From: Bryobacteraceae bacterium
Lineage (GTDB): Bacteria > Acidobacteriota > Terriglobia > Bryobacterales > Bryobacteraceae
Assembly (NCBI GenBank): GCA_041746955.1
Contig: JBGTFZ010000112.1
Location: 6,092-70,091, forward strand
DNA length: 64,000 bases
Reading direction: 5' to 3'
Below, one piece after another: positions 7,688 through 14,949 of the stretch. Position 1 is the stretch's first letter. Every line of letters begins with the position of its first letter. The notes under the pieces were generated by a model, which was given only the letters and a program-made list of their open reading frames with translations, made no database searches and was not told the origin of the DNA. The position numbers were made by a program, and so were the translations under genes.

Positions 7688-7734
7688 AGGTCTCCACGTT
7701 GCAGCCCTGGCCCAGCTTGTCCCGCCCTCATTTT
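7659..7734 (+). pseudogene. 5' fragment (signal peptide) of a gene split by the outer IS1595-family element
   Basis: ATG 7659 gives MNFASLFLLAGLHVAALAQLVPPSF. This runs in frame across the insertion into ..SVPTTYSGEGYK at 14950 onward once 7735-14949 is removed. Confidence 0.75.
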
Positions 7735-7768
7735 GGTAATAATATAGTTCGCAACTCACGCGGCCTGG
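7727..7768. repeat. Outer element left end: 8-bp target duplication (7727-7734) plus terminal inverted repeat
   Basis: CTCATTTT is followed by GGTAATAATATAGTTCGCAACTCACGCGGCCTGG. The partner is at 14908-14949. Confidence 0.85.
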
Positions 7769-7792
7769 TGGCGTAGGCCGGAAGATTGGGTC

Positions 7793-7957
7793 TCAGTGCG
7801 CCTTCTTTTGACGCTTAGCCTTCTGCTGCTCTTTCTTCCACTTCTCTTCTGCTGCAAGTAGATCGGCCTTGGATACGGTGAGTACAGACCGCAGAGCGTT
7901 GCTCATGCGCTCCGATTCGGAGTTGCCAGGTACGTGCGGTGCTGATGCTGGTTTCAT
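7793..7957 (-). CDS. Small basic protein (54 aa), last gene of the cargo operon
   Basis: Not in the ORF track (under 60 aa). ATG 7957 is preceded by GGAGGG. It translates to MKPASAPHVPGNSESERMSNALRSVLTVSKADLLAAEEKWKKEQQKAKRQKKAH. It resembles the 71-aa ORF at 10668-10883. Confidence 0.55.
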   Translation of the reverse strand: MKPASAPHVPGNSESERMSNALRSVLTVSKADLLAAEEKWKKEQQKAKRQKKAH

Positions 7958-7971
7958 GTTGTCCCTCCGGT

Positions 7972-8418
7972 TTAGAACTGAAGCTTATCCTGTTGATTGG
8001 ATTCGGACGCGCGCTTAGCAGCGGCTATGACCTCTAGACTCATGGGAATTTCGAGCCGCTTGCCGCCCTCTACAATCTCCTGAATGGTTACGATGCTGAT
8101 CTGATCGTAGCTTCGCCCCATGGTCTCGTGCCGGTACTGCCCTGCTGCCTTGGCCTCTTTTAACATTGGGCCACTTGGCTTCTCAAGCGTTATCAGAACG
8201 GCCAGCGCCGCCTGTTCCCGGCCCATGTCACCGCGCAGTGTGGCGATGTCGCTACGCTTCACACCCCCGGATTTAACTTGGAAGATGATCTTGGCGTTGT
8301 CGTGTTTGCCCGTCATGAAGTAAGCCCGCGCATCAATCCCAGCGTCCGCGCCTCTTTTCTCATTGATGACCGCCCGGTTGCTCGTGTACGTGAGCACAGC
8401 CCACTTCTCAAATTCCTT
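7972..8418 (-). pseudogene. 3' fragment of the methyltransferase-nuclease fusion gene: Mrr-like (PD-(D/E)xK) restriction endonuclease domain
   Basis: FEKWAVLTYTSNRAVINEKRGADAGIDARAYF...IIFQVKSGGVKRSDIATLRGDM...AVLITLEKPS matches the nuclease domain commonly fused C-terminally to beta-class DNA methyltransferases. The frame continues from 11402 once the inner IS is removed. Confidence 0.8.
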
Positions 8419-8440
8419 GGTAAGAATATACTTGACTAAG
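8411..8440. repeat. Inner element left end: 8-bp target duplication (8411-8418) plus 22-bp terminal inverted repeat
   Basis: AATTCCTT is followed by GGTAAGAATATACTTGACTAAG. The exact reverse complement is at 11372-11393, followed by AATTCCTT. Confidence 0.9.
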
Positions 8441-8466
8441 GAACCGATTCCCGGCATACTTGGTTC

Positions 8467-9411
8467 ATGGCACACGAACCCAAGACGCTCCAGGAAGCCA
8501 TTCAGTTCTTCTCGGACCTCGACAACTGCCAGAACTACCTTGTAGCGAAGCGCTGGGCCAATGGCGTCGTGTGCCCTACCTGCGGATCGAATGACGTTCG
8601 CTACCTTGCCAACCAGCGCCGTTGGGAGTGCAAGGCGAAGCACTCCAAGAAGCAATTCTCGATCAAGGTCGGGACCATCTTCGAAGACTCCCCGATCGGC
8701 CTAGACAAGTGGCTTGCAGCGGTATGGATGATTACGAACGCGAAGAACGGCATTTCGTCTTGGGAGATTCACCGCGCTCTTGGTGTCACGCAAAAGACCG
8801 CTTGGTTTATGCTCCATCGCGTTCGTTTGGGTCTTCAGTCGAATGATGGGGGCAAGCTGTCCGGTGAAGTCGAAGTCGATGAATCCTTCATCGGCGGCAA
8901 GGCCCGCAACATGCACGCTGTGAAGCGTGCGGAGCGGATGACAGCGGGATCGAACAAGGGAAAGACCATCGCGGTCGCCATTGTCGAGCGTGGCGGCAAG
9001 GTCAAGACTACCGTTGTCGAGCGCCGTCGAAAAAAGGAACTTCAGGCCGCAGTCCGTGAGCACGTCGAAGTTGGCAGCGCGATCTTCTCCGATGAGCTTC
9101 TGTCCTACGAAGGACTGTCCGAAGACTATCGCCACGCCGTCATCAATCACGCTGTCGAATATGCGCGGGGCAACGTGCACACGAACCATGCCGAGAACTT
9201 CTGGAGCCTCTTGAAGAGAGGAATTCACGGCACGTACGTGAACGTGGAACCTTTCCACCTGTTTCGCTACCTTGACGAACAAGCGTTTCGCTACAACAAC
9301 CGGAAGTTGACCGATGGTCAGCGGTTTGAAACGGCGGTTCAGCAGATCGTTGGCAAGCGCCTCACGTATGCCGATCTCACGGGCAAGGCAGGGTCAGACG
9401 CGGAAGCGTGA
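8467..9411 (+). CDS. IS1595 family (ISXO2-like) DDE transposase
   Basis: 314 aa. It has an N-terminal zinc ribbon (CPTCGS...C), then VEVDESFIGGKARNMH, FSDELLSY and HTNHAENFWSLLKRG. It is clearly related to the second copy at 13942-14892. Confidence 0.9.
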   Translation: MAHEPKTLQEAIQFFSDLDNCQNYLVAKRWANGVVCPTCGSNDVRYLANQRRWECKAKHSKKQFSIKVGTIFEDSPIGLDKWLAAVWMITNAKNGISSWEIHRALGVTQKTAWFMLHRVRLGLQSNDGGKLSGEVEVDESFIGGKARNMHAVKRAERMTAGSNKGKTIAVAIVERGGKVKTTVVERRRKKELQAAVREHVEVGSAIFSDELLSYEGLSEDYRHAVINHAVEYARGNVHTNHAENFWSLLKRGIHGTYVNVEPFHLFRYLDEQAFRYNNRKLTDGQRFETAVQQIVGKRLTYADLTGKAGSDAEA

Positions 9412-9468
9412 TGCCCCGCCAAGGGCGCGGGAAACGCCGCTAGCGGCGGGGCCGTCTAAGTCTATACA

Positions 9469-10281
9469 ATGCCTGAGTCGATGATCCAACTTGAAATCAC
9501 GTGGGGGGGGACTGTCAACGGCTTGTCGGAGCACAGGCTGAGCGTAGCTGCATTTGGCGAACCCCTGAAATTGTTGCTCAGTGCGATTAGGCGAAAGGCC
9601 AACAGCAAACTTCGTGAAGCCGCTGACCGAAGAGATGTTGATGTTGGCAGGTTCAAAGCTGAGGCGCGGAAGATTGACATTGAGATTGAATCGATCACTC
9701 ACGGTTCCGGCGGGATCAGCAGCGTTGTGACCGTTGAAGCCCCGGTTTCTGGACAACATTCCCTCTGGCCAGATGGGCTAGCCGAGGATTCCCTGAAAGA
9801 TGTTCTCGGCGACATCGAATCCGAGGGGAGGGGCAACCGTAGGAATAGGGCCGTTCGGGCATATCTTGCGGCTCTAGACCCCCGAGTTACGGCACAAGAC
9901 TACACGGCTAGTGTTAATGGGACCGTTCTAGCCAGGGTTCATTTGGGAACATTCATTATCTCTGGCGAACTTAGCGATGTCCCCTATATTGTAGAGCCGC
10001 GCGGTCGAATTGTGGGCCTTGGATTCGAACCTGGCCGCCCATTCATACGAATAAAGACAGCCGACGTAAATCAATCGGAAACTACATTTGCGGCCACCCA
10101 GGGACAAGTTGACGAGGCTCTCGAATTAAGGGACCGGGAGGTTCGAGTCCTGAGCGTAGTATCGGCTCTTGGCAAGAAGGTTTTGCGAATACAAGCCAGT
10201 GAAGATCCTCCCGTCCGACTCGACGAGAACGCCTATATTTTCGAGAAATGGAGCGTAGTCCTTGAAAGGCTGGCTCAATGA
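9469..10281 (+). CDS. Hypothetical 270-aa protein, upstream partner of the Doc-like toxin
   Basis: The ORF has no motif I recognise. Its stop overlaps the start of the Doc gene (ATGA at 10278-10281). By eye it is collinear with the 273-aa protein at 12983-13804. The start could be ATG 9481. Confidence 0.6.
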   Translation: MPESMIQLEITWGGTVNGLSEHRLSVAAFGEPLKLLLSAIRRKANSKLREAADRRDVDVGRFKAEARKIDIEIESITHGSGGISSVVTVEAPVSGQHSLWPDGLAEDSLKDVLGDIESEGRGNRRNRAVRAYLAALDPRVTAQDYTASVNGTVLARVHLGTFIISGELSDVPYIVEPRGRIVGLGFEPGRPFIRIKTADVNQSETTFAATQGQVDEALELRDREVRVLSVVSALGKKVLRIQASEDPPVRLDENAYIFEKWSVVLERLAQ

Positions 10282-10709
10282 AGCCATGGGAATCGCTAAT
10301 CTCTCTTGAGCGGATCATGGAGTTGCACGGCAAGGCAATGACGAAGGTTGGGCAAGCGCCAACCGTGGATCGGAAAACGCGGGACTGCGTTGACGGACGA
10401 TTAGGTAATGCTTGGACAGGAGAATCTTATGTGGGGGATGCCAGGGATGCAAGACCGGGACTGTGTTTCGCTGGCTTTCTACTGTTTTACCTAGTCAGAG
10501 ACCATTGCTTCCCTGATGGAAACAAGCGAATCGGTTGGGTCGCAGCGATGGAGATCTTGGCAAGGATTGGCCTTACTGTTAAGGCTACAGATGATGAAGC
10601 CACTGACTTCGTTACCAGAATCGCAGATCAAGAACGGGACGATTCTGTCAAGTCGGGGCTAGATGCCTCACTTTGGTTGGCTGGCAGACTTGAAGCACCA
10701 GCCGTCTGA
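10278..10709 (+). CDS. Fic/Doc family protein (death-on-curing-type toxin)
   Basis: 143 aa. The motif DHCFPDGNKRIGW matches the Doc signature HxFxDGNKR. Confidence 0.8.
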   Translation: MKPWESLISLERIMELHGKAMTKVGQAPTVDRKTRDCVDGRLGNAWTGESYVGDARDARPGLCFAGFLLFYLVRDHCFPDGNKRIGWVAAMEILARIGLTVKATDDEATDFVTRIADQERDDSVKSGLDASLWLAGRLEAPAV

Positions 10710-10883
10710 CGGGCGGTCGCTTTCTGGCAACGTTCGCTTCTTCGGCCCGCGCTTCTTAGGGTTCTTGTCCGCTTCCTTCTTGTAGGCTTCCATCCGCTTC
10801 TTCATCTCATTGCGGGGCACGCCGAGAAGCTGGCTCATCGCGTGGTCGAACGCCTCGAACTCCGGGTTCCTTGATGTTGCCAT
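10668..10883 (-). CDS. Small basic protein (71 aa)
   Basis: An internal Met of track ORF 10668-11120 gives MATSRNPEFEAFDHAMSQLLGVPRNEMKKRMEAYKKEADKNPKKRGPKKR.... It resembles the 54-aa ORF at 7793-7957. There is no clear SD, and its 3' end overlaps the Doc gene by 42 nt. Confidence 0.4.
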   Translation of the reverse strand: MATSRNPEFEAFDHAMSQLLGVPRNEMKKRMEAYKKEADKNPKKRGPKKRTLPESDRPSDGWCFKSASQPK

Positions 10884-10986
10884 TCTGTGGACATCGTAAC
10901 CCACTACGTTCGCGCTTGAAAGTGAAAAACATTCTGCTCTTGCCGGAAAACATTCAGGTGGTAAAATGTTGTGAGAGGTACCCGAA

Positions 10987-11313
10987 ATGAGCACCGACGA
11001 ACAAGACGCGATCATAGGCCGAATGATCCGGGAACGCTCGGAAGTGCAGAAGAGCGTAGCTGCCTTGCGTGAGGATTTAAAGGCGAAGGCGCGGTCGATG
11101 GCTGAACTTGTATCAGCCATCGAAGGACTCGTGAATGGGGAAGCGCGACCGGCCTACATTTCAGACCCAACGAACGACCACACCCAGCACGCCATTTCAA
11201 AACTTCAGTCGGCGCCGGAGAAGGAGGCTATCCTTCAATCTCTCCACCAATTCAACGGGGCGTCGAAGCGCCTGTTGGATCTCAAGAACAACCTCGCCGA
11301 ATTCGGCGCGTAA
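10987..11313 (+). CDS. Hypothetical 108-aa protein (helical or coiled-coil-like)
   Basis: The ORF is divergent from 10668-10883 and has no recognisable motif. It is the last gene before the inner right end. Confidence 0.4.
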   Translation: MSTDEQDAIIGRMIRERSEVQKSVAALREDLKAKARSMAELVSAIEGLVNGEARPAYISDPTNDHTQHAISKLQSAPEKEAILQSLHQFNGASKRLLDLKNNLAEFGA

Positions 11314-11338
11314 GAAAATTCTAACCCCACCGGGCCTG

Positions 11339-12478
11339 TCACGCCGCCTTCAGCGTACCGACCGCCATTCGCTTAGTCAAGTATATTCTTACCAATTCCT
11401 TTCGGAGTCGGTCGTCTTGCTTGTGCGCGAGAGCCTGGGCGGAGGCTATATCACGCGGGATACCGTCCGCTTGGACTTGAGAGAGTACGCCTACCCCCAA
11501 TGACTCCTCAAGACGCCTCAGGACGAGCGAAATAGAATGATAGGTAATATCGATTCCAATCCACTCGCGTTTTAGCAACTGGGCCGCTACGATTGTAGTT
11601 CCGCAACCGCAATAGGCATCTAGCACCACCTGCCCCTCTTGGCTGCACGCCTTTATGATCCGCTCCAAAAGGGCTAGGGGCTTTTGCGTGGGATATCCGA
11701 GGCGCTCAGCTGATGTCGCTTGAAGTGAGTTGATGTCAGTCCACCAGTCTTCTGGAACCTTTCCTTCGTCGAGATAATACTTATAGTATTTCGTCTCCCC
11801 CTTAGCGTTCTTCGTTCCATAAACCAAGCGATACTCGCGGCCATCGGAATCGGTTTCCATGCGCCCGCCGAAACTCTTCTTCCCGCTTCTCATTTCTATA
11901 CGAACCTGATCACCATTGAACACATACTCAGAAGATTTTGAGTAGAAAAAGATGACATCATGCTTGCGCCCGAAGCGGTTCTTGCTCTTGCCGCCGTGGC
12001 TGTAACACCATACGATCTCGTTTATGAAGTCGCCACCGTCCGAACAGAAAACCGCATCCAGAATCAGCTTTAGGTAATGACTTGAAGTAGGGTCACAATG
12101 CAGGAAAAACGTACCCGTTCTCTTGAGGACGCGACGAATCTCGGTAACGCGAAGCGCAATACTGATGAGATACGCCAACAATCCCCCTTCCCCAAGGACA
12201 GGGTGTAGGCCCTTGAGTAGGTCCACAAGCTGAGGCTGAAAGCGACCATGGTCGTTGGATAGAACTTCCGCGTAACCAGTAGTAGCCCTGGCATCCCAAG
12301 TCCACGTGTCCATGAACGCCTGCGCCTGCGCACGGTCCTCTCCCCCTACGTTGTTGTAAATCTGGTTGTAGTTCCGCTTCGAGTTGAAAGGCGGATCGAT
12401 GTAGCATAGATCAACAGTCTCATCTTTGATCTTCTTCCGAAGAATGTCCAGGTTGTCGCCGTAGAAGAGTTTGTTCAT
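11339..12478 (-). CDS. Beta-class N6-adenine (N4/N6 family) DNA methyltransferase, truncated by the IS insertion
   Basis: 379 aa. Motif IV IDPPFNS lies near the N-terminus and motif I VLDAYCGCGTT near the C-terminus, which is the beta-class order. The native sequence ends at ..DDRLRKE (11394). The final 18 codons (LVRIYLTKRMAVGTLKAA) are read from the IS end. Confidence 0.85.
   Translation of the reverse strand: MNKLFYGDNLDILRKKIKDETVDLCYIDPPFNSKRNYNQIYNNVGGEDRAQAQAFMDTWTWDARATTGYAEVLSNDHGRFQPQLVDLLKGLHPVLGEGGLLAYLISIALRVTEIRRVLKRTGTFFLHCDPTSSHYLKLILDAVFCSDGGDFINEIVWCYSHGGKSKNRFGRKHDVIFFYSKSSEYVFNGDQVRIEMRSGKKSFGGRMETDSDGREYRLVYGTKNAKGETKYYKYYLDEGKVPEDWWTDINSLQATSAERLGYPTQKPLALLERIIKACSQEGQVVLDAYCGCGTTIVAAQLLKREWIGIDITYHSISLVLRRLEESLGVGVLSQVQADGIPRDIASAQALAHKQDDRLRKELVRIYLTKRMAVGTLKAA
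11372..11401. repeat. Inner element right end: 22-bp terminal inverted repeat plus 8-bp target duplication (11394-11401)
   Basis: CTTAGTCAAGTATATTCTTACC is followed by AATTCCTT. Confidence 0.9.
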
Positions 12479-12990
12479 ATGCGCTCTGCTTGGGCTCCAG
12501 GTGTCGGCCCTAGGGGCAGGAATGGTTCCGAAGAGACCGGTGCCTTGATTGGGAAGTTGTTCTCTGTTAGCGCGGAATATTTATCCAGTGGCCTGTCGTA
12601 GGTATGGAACTCTGTGACTTTTAGTTGTTCTGCGGTCGCCAGATGAAGAGCGTCGGCAGGCTTCAGTACCCAACCTTTTTCGATTGCCGCCCTCATCAAT
12701 CGTCGTGCCCGTTCGGCGATTGGTTCATACACCTCCACTAGCTTTATTGGTGAGCCGATCCGCCAGAGGTTCCCGATCTTGTCTTCGATCCCTGGATCTA
12801 GGAGTTTGTTGTCCTGCTCAACCTTGGCGAATGCTACTTCTGTGATGCTGATAACAGAGGTGACAATCTGGAAGGTTTCCCCGCTCCGCTTCATCAGCGG
12901 CGCGATGTGCTGGATTCTATCTTCGGTGCCGTTAATGTACGACAGCGGGACGCAGGCATCCCAGTAGATGAATGGGAGGCTGTCAGGCAT
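12475..12990 (-). CDS. PIN domain nuclease (VapC-like)
   Basis: Acidic residues fall in PIN order: IYWDACV, SITEV, KPADALHLATA, TYD. The stop overlaps the methyltransferase ATG (ATGA at 12475-12478). The start is taken at MPDSLPF (12990); the alternative is 13011. Confidence 0.75.
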   Translation of the reverse strand: MPDSLPFIYWDACVPLSYINGTEDRIQHIAPLMKRSGETFQIVTSVISITEVAFAKVEQDNKLLDPGIEDKIGNLWRIGSPIKLVEVYEPIAERARRLMRAAIEKGWVLKPADALHLATAEQLKVTEFHTYDRPLDKYSALTENNFPIKAPVSSEPFLPLGPTPGAQAERI

Positions 12991-13804
12991 CGCGCCCCCT
13001 TCGGATGGCATCTTCTGGCGATAGATCGTTTAGCGATGGCGCCACGCCGCGAGCAGTCTCATAATTCGGAGCGGAAGGCGGCTCATCTAAAAGAGCGATA
13101 CTCCTGACTTGACGGATCGCTAAAGGCCTTCCATTCAGTGGATCGCGGGTGATGAGGCCTTCAATGAACGCCAGTCTGCCCCAAGCGTTACGCAGCAATT
13201 CTTCTTTGCCCTCGGCTATGTAGCAGCCGACGGCCTTGTCATAGAGCAGATCGTAAACCGTAAAGCGGAGAGCGCCCCTATTGGAAAGAGCCTGGACCCT
13301 GCCTTGAATCGCACCGAAAGAAGACGCCGCCGTGGCCGGCGCTTTAATCGCAAGCAGTTCCGAGACAGTGCCGACTGCCGCCGCTGTCTTGGCTTTGGGG
13401 AAGACAAGCAGCCTGGGAGGGCTATCCTGGCTCGTGGGGATCACAGCATCCCTTTGAGCGGTCTCGAACCTCACAGCCTTAACGCGACGGTCCCGTATCG
13501 AGATTATTTTGTTTACAGCCCGGCGAACACGCGGGGACACCTGGACCGGCGTGTGGTTCTCAAGGGCCGTTCCCACTGCCGCATAATCGCGGGCGACTTG
13601 CTCTGCGGCTTGGGGATCACTAAGGGCTCTTGCGGTCGCTATGGCGCTGCTGACCTGAAGGTCATCAATAACCCAATCTAGTTCGGGCGATCCGGCGTCC
13701 TCAGAGAGAGCGCTGACTAGTTCGGCAAAGCGCCCTATGGTGCGGGCGAACTCGCCAAGGGGAATCTCCCCATCAAGAGCGATTGTGATGGTATCGTCTG
13801 GCAT
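12983..13804 (-). CDS. Hypothetical 273-aa protein, upstream partner of the PIN nuclease
   Basis: GGGAGG lies 8 nt upstream of ATG 13804. The 3' end overlaps the PIN start by 8 nt. No known motif. By eye it is collinear with the 270-aa protein at 9469-10281. Confidence 0.65.
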   Translation of the reverse strand: MPDDTITIALDGEIPLGEFARTIGRFAELVSALSEDAGSPELDWVIDDLQVSSAIATARALSDPQAAEQVARDYAAVGTALENHTPVQVSPRVRRAVNKIISIRDRRVKAVRFETAQRDAVIPTSQDSPPRLLVFPKAKTAAAVGTVSELLAIKAPATAASSFGAIQGRVQALSNRGALRFTVYDLLYDKAVGCYIAEGKEELLRNAWGRLAFIEGLITRDPLNGRPLAIRQVRSIALLDEPPSAPNYETARGVAPSLNDLSPEDAIRRGRDA

Positions 13805-13863
13805 GATTCAGCCTCCCTATGCTACGATCAAGTCACCTGAAGATCATTAGCATTTCAGAAGGA

Positions 13864-13889
13864 GCCGTGATTCGTAGTCACGGCTTTTT
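13864..13889. terminator. Hairpin between the transposase and the cargo operon
   Basis: GCCGTGA-ttcgtag-TCACGGC is followed by TTTTT on the plus strand. On the minus strand, where the genes lie, the U-tract is poor, so function is uncertain. Confidence 0.3.
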
Positions 13890-13941
13890 CTTGTCCGGCT
13901 CCAAGGGACGCTTTCCGCGCCTTTGCCTCAGGGCTTCTTTC

Positions 13942-14892
13942 TCAGTTAGCTTGCGATGATCGCTCCTCCATCTGCTTGCCCGTCAGGTGATCGAAAGTCA
14001 GCCGCTTCCCCACGATACCCGAAACCGCCAAGCCGAATCTCTCTGCATCGGTCATCTTGCGATGGTTGTAGCGGAAGCACTGTTCGTCCAAGTAGCGGAA
14101 CAAATGGAACGGCTCGACACTCACGTAGGTTCCGCCGATGCCGCGCTTGAGCAAGCTCCAGAAGTTCTCCATGCCATTGGTGTGGACATTTCCACGGACG
14201 TACTCTTCGGCGTGGTTGATGACCTTGTGAGCGTAGTCGGAAGCAAGCCCGTCGTAGCTTAGCAACTCGTCAGTGTAGACGGTCGAGCCGGGCGCGACGT
14301 GCTGCCGAATCTCAGCTTGGACTTCATGCTTGCGGCGGGTCTCTACAACGGTGGCCTTGACCTTGCCCTTACGCTCTAGCATTCCCATGACGATGACCTT
14401 CCCCACGGTTCCGCGCCCGTTGATTCTGGCCTTTCGCTTGGAGACGTGCATGTTACGAGCTTTACCGCCGATGAACGATTCATCGGCCTCAACTTCCCCC
14501 GACAGTTTTTGTTCGGGGTCCAAGCCGAGGGCAAGGCGAATCCTATGATTCATGAACCATGCAGACTTCTGAGTTACGCCAACGGTGCGGTGAATCTCAT
14601 AGCTGCTCACGCCGTTCTTGCAGTTGACCACCATCCACATCGCCAAGAGCCACTTATCTAACCCGAGTGGCGAACTCTCGAAGATGGTCCCGGTCTTTGT
14701 GGTGAACTGCCGAAGTGCATGCCTGCTGCCACATTGCCAGCGGTTGTACTTCTCCTGAAACAGGACGTTCTTGCTGCCGCATCGCGGGCAAGTCACACCT
14801 TCAGGCCAGCGGTGTGCGACCAAGTAGTCCCGGCAGTTGTCGGGATCGGCGAAGTAAAGGACCGCTTCTTGCAGGGTGTTCGGGCTGGCCAT
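13942..14892 (-). CDS. IS1595 family (ISXO2-like) DDE transposase
   Basis: 316 aa. It has a zinc ribbon (CPRCGS...C), then VEADESFIGGKARNMH, YTDELLSY and HTNGMENFWSLLKRG. The ATG is 49 nt inside the right end of the outer element. Confidence 0.9.
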   Translation of the reverse strand: MASPNTLQEAVLYFADPDNCRDYLVAHRWPEGVTCPRCGSKNVLFQEKYNRWQCGSRHALRQFTTKTGTIFESSPLGLDKWLLAMWMVVNCKNGVSSYEIHRTVGVTQKSAWFMNHRIRLALGLDPEQKLSGEVEADESFIGGKARNMHVSKRKARINGRGTVGKVIVMGMLERKGKVKATVVETRRKHEVQAEIRQHVAPGSTVYTDELLSYDGLASDYAHKVINHAEEYVRGNVHTNGMENFWSLLKRGIGGTYVSVEPFHLFRYLDEQCFRYNHRKMTDAERFGLAVSGIVGKRLTFDHLTGKQMEERSSQAN

Positions 14893-14907
14893 GACTCAAT
14901 AATAGGG

Positions 14908-14949
14908 CCGGTCCGTGTGAGTTGTCAACTATATTATTGCCCTCATTTT
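14908..14949. repeat. Outer element right end: terminal inverted repeat plus 8-bp target duplication (14942-14949)
   Basis: The reverse complement from 14941 reads GGCAATAATATAGTTGACAACTCACACGGACCGG. It is followed on the plus strand by CTCATTTT. Confidence 0.85.

Follow-up and report, generated by a model that had tools for sequence, protein, structure and literature searches.

A stretch of 64,000 nucleotides (nt) from a Bryobacteraceae bacterium (GenBank assembly GCA_041746955.1, contig JBGTFZ010000112.1, positions 6,092 to 70,091), referred to here as the window, contains two toxin genes, one coding for a Doc-type Fic protein and the other for a PIN-domain protein. Each is preceded by, and overlaps, a gene for a protein of about 270 amino acids (aa), designated protein A in the Doc module and protein B in the PIN module. 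The locus raises the question of whether proteins of this size might serve as the antitoxins of their neighbors and, if so, whether A and B are members of one family that has been coupled to two unrelated toxins, as proposed in an initial annotation made from the sequence. The results presented here suggest that A-Doc and B-PIN are probably type II toxin-antitoxin modules with large antitoxins that have a predicted oligonucleotide/oligosaccharide-binding (OB) fold, carried as cargo by insertion sequences (ISs) of the IS1595 family.

Two toxin genes with large, overlapping partner genes

In both modules the partner gene (A or B) lies 5' and the toxin gene 3', in the same orientation and overlapping (Table 1). 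The positions, strands and lengths given for A and B in the initial annotation were recovered exactly, and its identification of a Doc protein after A and a PIN domain after B agreed with the family searches. The gene following A matched Fic in Pfam (E, 6.6e-8), TIGR01550 DOC_P1 (E, 1.5e-10) and phrog_577, 'Doc-like toxin' (E, 1.8e-13), and the sequence HCFPDGNKR conforms to the Doc motif HxFx(D/N)(A/G)NKR. Doc-type Fic kinases such as Doc of phage P1 phosphorylate EF-Tu. The gene following B matched PF01850 in a Pfam scan (E, 1.9e-11), and its acidic residues D, E, D and D, read by eye in YWDAC, ITEVAF, ADALHLA and HTYD, are conserved in homologs. Searches of the PDB with Doc and PIN by phmmer found nothing.

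The PIN gene likely starts at position 12990, which gives a protein of 171 aa. This start was also chosen in an independent gene call for a second assembly with the identical sequence, and homologous B-PIN loci have the equivalent one. The alternative, the first ATG at 13011, would extend the overlap with B from 8 to 29 nt.

The initial annotation had also remarked that A and B are about three times as long as classical Phd or VapB antitoxins and have no recognizable antitoxin motif, and domain searches bore this out. Neither of the two window proteins had a match in Pfam, NCBIfam, PADLOC or PHROGs, and when 53 B-type and 44 A-type family members were each scanned against Pfam at E values of up to 10, nothing was found. 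Specifically, there was no Phd/YefM domain in the 44 A-family members, no AbrB, RHH, Phd/YefM or MerR DNA-binding domain in the 53 B-family members, and no Pfam match to DUF4065 (Panacea) in members of either family.

Each partner family is tied to one toxin

As had been suggested in the initial annotation, homologs of both proteins were collected and the genes downstream of them tabulated. A search with A yielded 13 relatives, and a profile search, in which the matches listed were all close members, yielded about 158 clusters at 90% identity. The A family comes mostly from metagenomes of Acidobacteriota/Terriglobales, and one member is from a cultured isolate, Anaeromyxobacter oryzae (WP_248358968.1, in AP025591.1). 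For B, 63 relatives were found with the protein itself, and an exhaustive profile search gave 2251 cluster representatives (50% identity) at E ≤0.001 and 532 at E ≤1e-30; the best 150 matches were inspected, about 1100 weak relatives lying outside the inspected set. The search lists of the two families had no shared member among the matches listed.

Among 64 metagenome loci with an A homolog (fetched loci are identified by L numbers where needed), 50 were distinct and had a downstream sequence of 330 nt or more. The Doc motif was present in the gene directly downstream in 47 of these, with a 4-nt overlap in most, and two further loci (L059 and L063) had a Doc homolog in which the catalytic His was replaced by Ser, so that Doc followed A in 49 of the 50. 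The B homologs were followed in 23 genome loci from Acidobacteriota, Dehalococcoidia, Binatia, Anaerolineae and Solirubrobacteraceae; 21 had room downstream, and one PIN subfamily was found there in 18, typically with an 8-nt overlap. A PIN gene also followed the B-type gene in all three of the loci that had one in a sample of viral contigs selected by transposase, two of these being remote relatives of B. In the fetched loci, the A and B families were almost never seen without their toxin.

Because A is followed by Doc in 49/50 loci and B by PIN in 18/21 and 3/3, there is no sign of promiscuity within either family: each is a faithful partner of one toxin type. The initial annotation's suggestion of one partner domain that services unrelated toxins therefore fails inside each family, and any promiscuity would be confined to the level of a very old fold. 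A-Doc and B-PIN both show the generic organization of type II toxin-antitoxin operons, in which a conserved pair of genes is adjacent, co-oriented and overlapping, and it is on account of this gene order, these overlaps and the near-invariant pairing that A and B are taken as antitoxins.

The pairs do not depend on an IS. The A-Doc pair of A. oryzae (AP025591.1) is not accompanied by any IS, toxin pairs without a nearby IS were found in loci of Dehalococcoidia metagenome-assembled genomes (MAGs), and many metagenome loci were also free of a transposase. Since the pairs also occur without an IS, A-Doc and B-PIN are each a self-contained module. Scans of IMG/VR viral contigs gave one locus for A and none for B.

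The catalytic motif of Doc in the A loci occurs with HCF, HCY or HCW, with NCF in L029 to L031, and as SCFPDGNKR in L059 and L063; given these variants, some copies may be inactive or altered. In two loci of Dehalococcoidia MAGs (L075 and L078), the B homolog is followed by a PIN gene that is split over two frames; either a genuine frameshift or an error in long-read assembly could explain this. No PIN gene was found behind the B-type match in L079, L080 and L088.

Predicted structures of the partner proteins

The AlphaFold2 (AF2) model of B, built from 53 sequences, had a predicted local distance difference test score (pLDDT) of 85.7 and a predicted template modeling (TM) score of 0.75. The model of A, built from 13 sequences, had a pLDDT of 73.9, with a C-terminal barrel at ∼90. 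The order of the 15 secondary-structure elements is identical in the two models. An alpha/beta N-domain (strand, helix, strand, strand, helix, helix, strand, strand) is followed by a linker, then by strand, strand, strand, helix, strand and strand, and finally by a terminal helix. The elements after the linker have OB topology in both models, that is, a barrel of five strands in which a helix separates strand 3 from strand 4. The models differ in the first helix, which is longer in A, where it forms a helical hairpin, and in the linker, which is longer, disordered and variable in B.

Foldseek comparisons of both models with the PDB gave OB folds only among the top 50 matches listed, over ∼80 to 110 aligned columns. 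Those of A included LEF-3, the cold-shock domain of Lin28, SSB, PriB, Rim1 and LysRS (best E, 2.9e-3), and those of B included the anticodon-binding domain of LysRS, Teb1, ExoVII and Rim1 (best E, 8.5e-4). The probability was ∼1.0 for the Lin28 cold-shock domain, SSB, PriB, Rim1, the N-domain of LysRS and Teb1, with E values of only 8.5e-4 to 1e-2. The same Rim1 chain, 6cqk_C, appeared in both listings, with target-normalized TM scores of 0.64 and 0.63. Judging from topology, the matches would fall on the C-terminal domain. A shared three-part architecture of A and B is likely on these models, and common ancestry is plausible but unproven. The initial annotation had assigned A and B to one family; this is plausible only as a common predicted architecture, with the same 15 elements and with OB matches that include 6cqk_C, and is not supported at the level of sequence or profile. 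The strand-helix-strand-strand-helix order of the N-terminal half is like that of Phd/YefM, and such an assignment was considered and rejected because it had no support from Pfam.

The C-terminal tails differ between the families. That of A reads IF.RW..L.RLA, with W261 and L268 invariant (pLDDT, 44 to 53), and that of B reads ARG..P...SPE.AIRR.RDA (pLDDT, 67 to 80). Although each tail is conserved across its family, it packs poorly in the model of the monomer, as would be expected of a segment that binds the toxin and folds upon doing so. Remote B-type proteins whose PIN partners are divergent have a different tail.

When the model of B was compared with the viral models in BFVD, Foldseek gave three full-length, loosely superposed matches (TM, 0.23 to 0.34), namely, A0A8S5QA00 (DUF6575), A0A8S5T657 (270 aa) and Q6NE06 of Leptospira phage LE1. 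The match to DUF6575 (E, 1e-7) had a TM score of 0.23 to 0.30 and a root mean square deviation of 21 Å and was without sequence support; it is a lead only. DUF6575 is present in an experimentally selected anti-phage system of Escherichia coli (PMC9519451).

These structural features bear on the possibility that the modules are abortive-infection or defense systems, in which the N-domain and OB body would sense a cue of phage or foreign DNA (e.g., a phage protein or nucleic acid in single-stranded form) and then free the toxin, as has been proposed for Panacea- and CapRel-type systems. We regard this as rather unlikely. A globular body that is large, conserved and far beyond the needs of neutralization would suit a sensor, as would the large number of basic or aromatic positions that are invariant in the OB domain of B (R169, R176, R180, F181, K190, Y195, R205, W208, R220, R226 and R231). 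A sensory role for accessory antitoxin domains has been proposed by the NetFlax authors (PMC10440598), the DUF6575 match points toward an anti-phage context, and the PIN module adjoins a gene for a methylase-Mrr nuclease fusion, which is restriction-modification-like cargo. However, A and B match no model in PADLOC, members of either family are seldom found in IMG/VR contigs, and the superposition on DUF6575 is as loose as described above.

Sequence comparison of A and B

BLASTP comparison of A with B gave nothing significant (best E, 1.4). Profiles were compared with hhalign in five rounds that covered small and large alignments, separate domains, the addition of AF2-derived secondary structure, and global versus local alignment. 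The first family alignments gave a probability of 0.1% (P, 0.54), and larger alignments of 51 to 155 A-type and ∼203 B-type sequences gave P values of 0.026 to 0.035. The comparison of N-domain with N-domain gave P values of 0.012 (local) and ∼0.005 (global), and that of the OB/C-terminal halves gave values of 0.2 to 0.45. Cross-domain controls were at 0.03 to 0.3, including 0.03 to 0.05 for the OB domain of A against the N-domain of B. Searches of PDB sequences with the profiles of both families and of their tails returned noise only. Thus, the HHalign comparison that the initial annotation had named as a check on its single family did not produce significant similarity in any round (P, 0.005 to 0.54).

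The initial annotation had matched A and B by eye in three collinear blocks. In sequence these blocks are not significant, given the BLASTP result and hhalign values near those of the controls, but they do lie on equivalent predicted elements: in both models they map to helix 1, to strands 2 and 3, and to the first hairpin of the OB barrel. The first two blocks are in the exact register of the best sub-threshold hhalign alignment, which joins residues 5 to 91 of A with residues 3 to 60 of B. The score of this alignment, 19.2, was higher than those of all 120 column-shuffled nulls (mean, 12.4; standard deviation, 1.9; maximum, 18.2). The reversed-profile control scored 16.7, and because the reversed profile scores nearly as high as the real one, the signal is largely one of secondary-structure periodicity. 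Two remote B-like proteins from viral contigs (L095 and L104) were considered as a bridge to A, and no link was found.

It is possible, if somewhat doubtful, that A and B are unrelated, i.e., that they represent two independent families of large antitoxins of similar length, each with the widespread OB fold, in which case the three blocks would be due to chance. This would agree with the lack of significance in BLASTP, with hhalign P values (0.026 to 0.54 at full length and 0.2 to 0.45 for the OB/C-terminal halves) set against controls of 0.03 to 0.05, and with the small difference between the real and reversed profiles. In addition, the OB fold is among the commonest small barrels, and neither family turns up in the searches of the other among the matches listed. 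Chance would have to account, however, for the identical order of the 15 elements and of the domains (N-domain, linker, OB and tail) in the models, for an hhalign alignment that is in register with equivalent N-domain elements and exceeds 120 of 120 column shuffles, and for the fact that in related elements the two families take the same place, with an IS1595 transposase on one side and a toxin on the other.

Two nested IS1595 elements

As stated in the initial annotation, each module lies on its own IS1595 element; the transposases, inverted repeats (IRs) and exact 8-bp target site duplications (TSDs) establish this and further show that one element is nested in the other (Table 1). Both elements have a transposase with DDE_Tnp_IS1595 and zinc ribbon matches together with IRs and 8-bp TSDs, and the two transposases are 64% identical. 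The inner element (8419-11393) comprises the transposase, A, Doc, a small basic open reading frame (ORF) on the opposite strand and a 108-aa ORF. The outer element (7735-14941, reverse strand) comprises the transposase, B, PIN, a methyltransferase-Mrr fusion gene and a 54-aa basic ORF. The inner, A-Doc element is inserted in the methyltransferase-Mrr gene of the outer, B-PIN element, and removal of 8419-11401 in silico restored a single methyltransferase-nuclease ORF of 507 aa. The G+C content falls from ∼0.62 in the flanks to 0.50 to 0.57 inside the elements.

The IR tips of both elements begin GGTAA.AATATA. A promoter-like site of the outer element (14928-14899, reverse strand; TTGACA-18-TATTAT, 11 of 12 matches) lies inside the terminal IR, 5' of the transposase gene, and promoter-like hexamers at 8432-8460 (forward strand) are likewise placed inside the terminal IR of the inner element, also 5' of the transposase gene. 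The -35 box is part of the conserved IR sequence ACTTGAC.

A perfect palindrome, CGCCGCTAGCGGCG, is located at 9436-9449, between the inner transposase gene and A, and a hairpin, AGCCGTGA-7 nt-TCACGGCT, at 13885-13863 (reverse strand), between the outer transposase gene and B. Either might serve as an operator or as a terminator for the transposase gene. No match was obtained when the region was scanned with Rfam or for tRNAs.

Table 1. Features of the two toxin modules and of the nested IS1595 elements (positions in the window)
Feature	Coordinates	Strand	Description
Protein A	9469-10281	+	270 aa; presumptive large antitoxin of Doc; no known domain
Doc-type Fic toxin	10278-10709	+	143 aa; HCFPDGNKR; 4-nt overlap with A
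Protein B	12983-13804	-	273 aa; presumptive large antitoxin of PIN; no known domain
PIN-domain toxin	12475-12990	-	171 aa from second ATG; 8-nt overlap with B
TSD CTCATTTT, outer element, left copy	7727-7734		Identical 8-mer at 14942-14949, directly outside IRs
Terminal IR, outer element (GGTAATAATATAGTT...)	7735-7768		34 nt; 82% complementary to 14908-14941
Small basic ORF, far end of outer element	7793-7957	-	54 aa; homologs end-proximal in many IS1595 elements
Mrr-like nuclease, 3' part of methyltransferase-nuclease fusion	7972-8418	-	Mrr_cat, E 2.7e-5; severed by inner element
TSD AATTCCTT, inner element, left copy	8411-8418		Identical 8-mer at 11394-11401
Left IR, inner element (GGTAAGAATATACTTGACTAAG)	8419-8440		Perfect 22-nt IR with 11372-11393; has -35-like TTGACT
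IS1595-family transposase, inner element	8467-9411	+	314 aa; DDE_Tnp_IS1595, E 3.5e-39; Zn_ribbon_IS1595, E 9e-10
Second copy of small basic ORF	10668-10883	-	∼71 aa from MATSRN...; convergent with Doc
108-aa ORF, inner element	10987-11313	+	Coiled-coil-like sequence; promoter-like site at 10940-10967 before it
Right IR, inner element	11372-11393		Pairs with 8419-8440
TSD AATTCCTT, inner element, right copy	11394-11401		8-bp identity with left copy
N6/N4 DNA methyltransferase, 5' part of interrupted gene	11402-12478	-	N6_N4_Mtase, E 7.5e-41; PADLOC MTase_II, E 1e-54
IS1595-family transposase, outer element	13942-14892	-	316 aa; DDE_Tnp_IS1595, E 5e-44; zinc ribbon, E 2e-9
Terminal IR, outer element	14908-14941		34 nt; contains promoter-like site
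TSD CTCATTTT, outer element, right copy	14942-14949		8-bp identity with left copy

Cargo and backbone genes of IS1595 elements elsewhere

The association of the modules with IS1595 is not confined to the window. Complete elements with their own 8-bp TSDs that carry a transposase, A, Doc and the small ORF were found at three loci (L025, L017 and L008), and independent elements with their own TSDs that carry a transposase, B and PIN were found at two (L072 and L069). Among the loci with enough upstream sequence, an IS1595 transposase gene on the same strand was located directly upstream in ∼11 of 29 A loci and 8 or 9 of 23 B loci.

A cargo survey was made of 80 viral-contig loci from IMG/VR (L090 to L169) that were chosen by their transposase alone. 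B-PIN was present in three and A-Doc in none, and other cargo fills that slot. Thus, the toxin modules are one recurrent cargo type among many. From visible motifs, the cargo of the slot included N4/N6, Dam-like and C5 DNA methyltransferases and PAPS-reductase-like, ParB-like and DUF3800-like proteins, with methyltransferases appearing to be the commonest.

These surveys also bear on whether A and B might be accessory transposition proteins of an IS1595 subgroup, acting in DNA-end or single-strand binding, with the toxins as a secondary addition. An OB fold could bind DNA, and in many elements A or B lies within the IRs, directly 3' of the transposase gene and on the same strand. However, most IS1595 relatives lack both proteins, as the survey of 80 loci shows, both families occur beside their toxin at loci of Anaeromyxobacter and Dehalococcoidia and at many metagenome loci that have no transposase, and A and B almost never occur without a toxin. 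We therefore consider a role of this kind very improbable.

In L012, L018, L019 and L036, a second IS1595 transposase gene is located just 3' of the A-Doc pair. These second transposases, together with the nesting in the window, suggest that insertion of one such IS1595 element into or beside another is frequent.

The small basic ORFs of the two elements belong to a family of 54 to 75 aa with the core ERFDNAVRK..VSK.EL followed by a K-rich tail, which has no match in Pfam or NCBIfam. Members lie at the end of the element far from the transposase gene, in both orientations and whether or not there is cargo (e.g., L014, 1818-1976; L071, 5357-5515; L090, 4636-4451), and the ORF at 10668-10883 is homologous to ORFs that abut the transposase gene in cargo-free IS copies (L090, L100 and L106). 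The small basic ORF occurs in IS copies that have no cargo and is missing from toxin pairs that have no IS, and hence is part of the IS backbone rather than of the toxin module. The 54-aa ORF after the toxin had been considered as the real antitoxin, and this was rejected for the same reasons. The 108-aa ORF of the inner element had no homolog in ∼170 fetched loci and no family match, and may not be a gene.

Proposed mechanism and significance

If A and B are antitoxins, the C-terminal tail, which is distinct in each family and changes along with the toxin, would bind and block the cognate toxin. The N-domain and OB body would have an accessory function, in dimerization, in binding of nucleic acid or of an operator for autoregulation, or in sensing of a trigger. 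The 4- and 8-nt overlaps would provide translational coupling and so match the supply of antitoxin to that of the toxin. Because the module is located within the IRs, it moves with the IS, and it is probably addiction or defense cargo that favors retention of the element.

Several points weigh against this interpretation. There is no significant profile similarity between A and B. The tail profiles had no match to Phd (A) or VapB (B) chains in the PDB. Among the top 50 Foldseek matches listed, all of them short and OB type, there was none for either N-domain, and strands 1 to 3 of the N-domain of A were predicted with moderate confidence (pLDDT, 51 to 68) from an alignment of 13 sequences. The proposed binding of nucleic acid by the OB domain fits the basic and aromatic residues of B but is no more than an analogy with other OB folds. 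Finally, because the IS1595 group carries many other kinds of cargo, the link with the IS is opportunistic and not obligatory.

A further extension of the toxin-antitoxin interpretation would place A and B as separate branches in a single ancient and unannotated superfamily of 'sensor antitoxins' with an OB fold. The body of these proteins would bind nucleic acid, such as the single-stranded or damaged DNA that arises in transposition or phage infection, and in this way control the release of interchangeable toxins. IS1595 elements would then have recruited the modules as portable addiction or defense cargo, allowing the IS to persist and stack in genomes. This extension is speculative, and we consider it improbable as a whole.

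The presumptive novelty lies in large OB-fold partners as antitoxins, the toxins themselves being ordinary members of the Doc and PIN families. If A and B are antitoxins, they represent two sizeable unannotated families, with ∼2250 clusters (50% identity) for B and ∼158 (90% identity) for A, that have an alpha/beta plus OB build not found in the toxin-antitoxin literature searched. A fold of the nucleic-acid-binding type would thereby join the accessory antitoxin domains, and with the two families the modular model of a globular body with an exchangeable neutralizing tail could be tested cleanly. A small DDE IS that has demonstrably transposed with its cargo would also be a simple system in which to ask whether toxin-antitoxin cargo aids the persistence of an IS. 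Such experiments are feasible because the A-Doc pair is present in a cultured organism, A. oryzae.

Comparison with known systems

In the literature searched, no description was found of toxin cargo in IS1595 elements or of an OB-fold antitoxin. As in IS1595 insertion sequences with passenger genes, the modules are located between the transposase gene and the far end of the element. The IR tips presumably resemble those of the ISNwi1 subgroup of IS1595 (ISfinder). This subgroup includes members with passenger genes. The passengers in the window differ in that they form an operon of a toxin and a large partner, to which the outer element adds a methylase-Mrr gene. Transposons of the Tn3 family are reported to carry toxin-antitoxin pairs beside their transposition genes, an arrangement that points to a part in the retention or establishment of the element (PMC7157771). 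Compared with the Tn3-family case, IS1595 is a small DDE IS and the antitoxins are nonclassical.

The A-Doc module resembles Phd-Doc of phage P1 in that it has a Doc-type Fic protein with the HxFxDGNKR motif and a partner gene that comes first and overlaps the toxin gene. In PanA-Doc, the C-terminal 'Phd-C' element alone neutralizes Doc, the globular Panacea domain having an accessory and perhaps a sensory role (PMC10440598). By analogy with Phd and with the Phd-C of PanA of Corynebacterium doosanense (PMC10440598), A may neutralize Doc through a C-terminal helix. A differs in being 270 aa rather than ∼73 aa long and in having no detected Phd/YefM or Panacea domain. Its body, in contrast to Phd, is a predicted alpha/beta domain with an OB fold, and its tail has no sequence match to Phd.

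B-PIN is similar to VapBC in its PIN toxin with acidic residues, its antitoxin-first order, its overlapping genes and the arginine-rich C-terminal tail of B. It differs from VapBC in that B is 273 aa long, has no detected AbrB, RHH, Phd or MerR fold, and belongs to a large unannotated family (2251 clusters).

Unlike Panacea, neither family contains DUF4065, each is found with a single toxin type, and sharing of the body between the partners of Doc and PIN is seen only as a common predicted architecture. In concept, however, the modules resemble the Panacea (DUF4065)/NetFlax systems, in that a globular accessory domain would be combined with an exchangeable, toxin-specific neutralizing element (PMC10440598).

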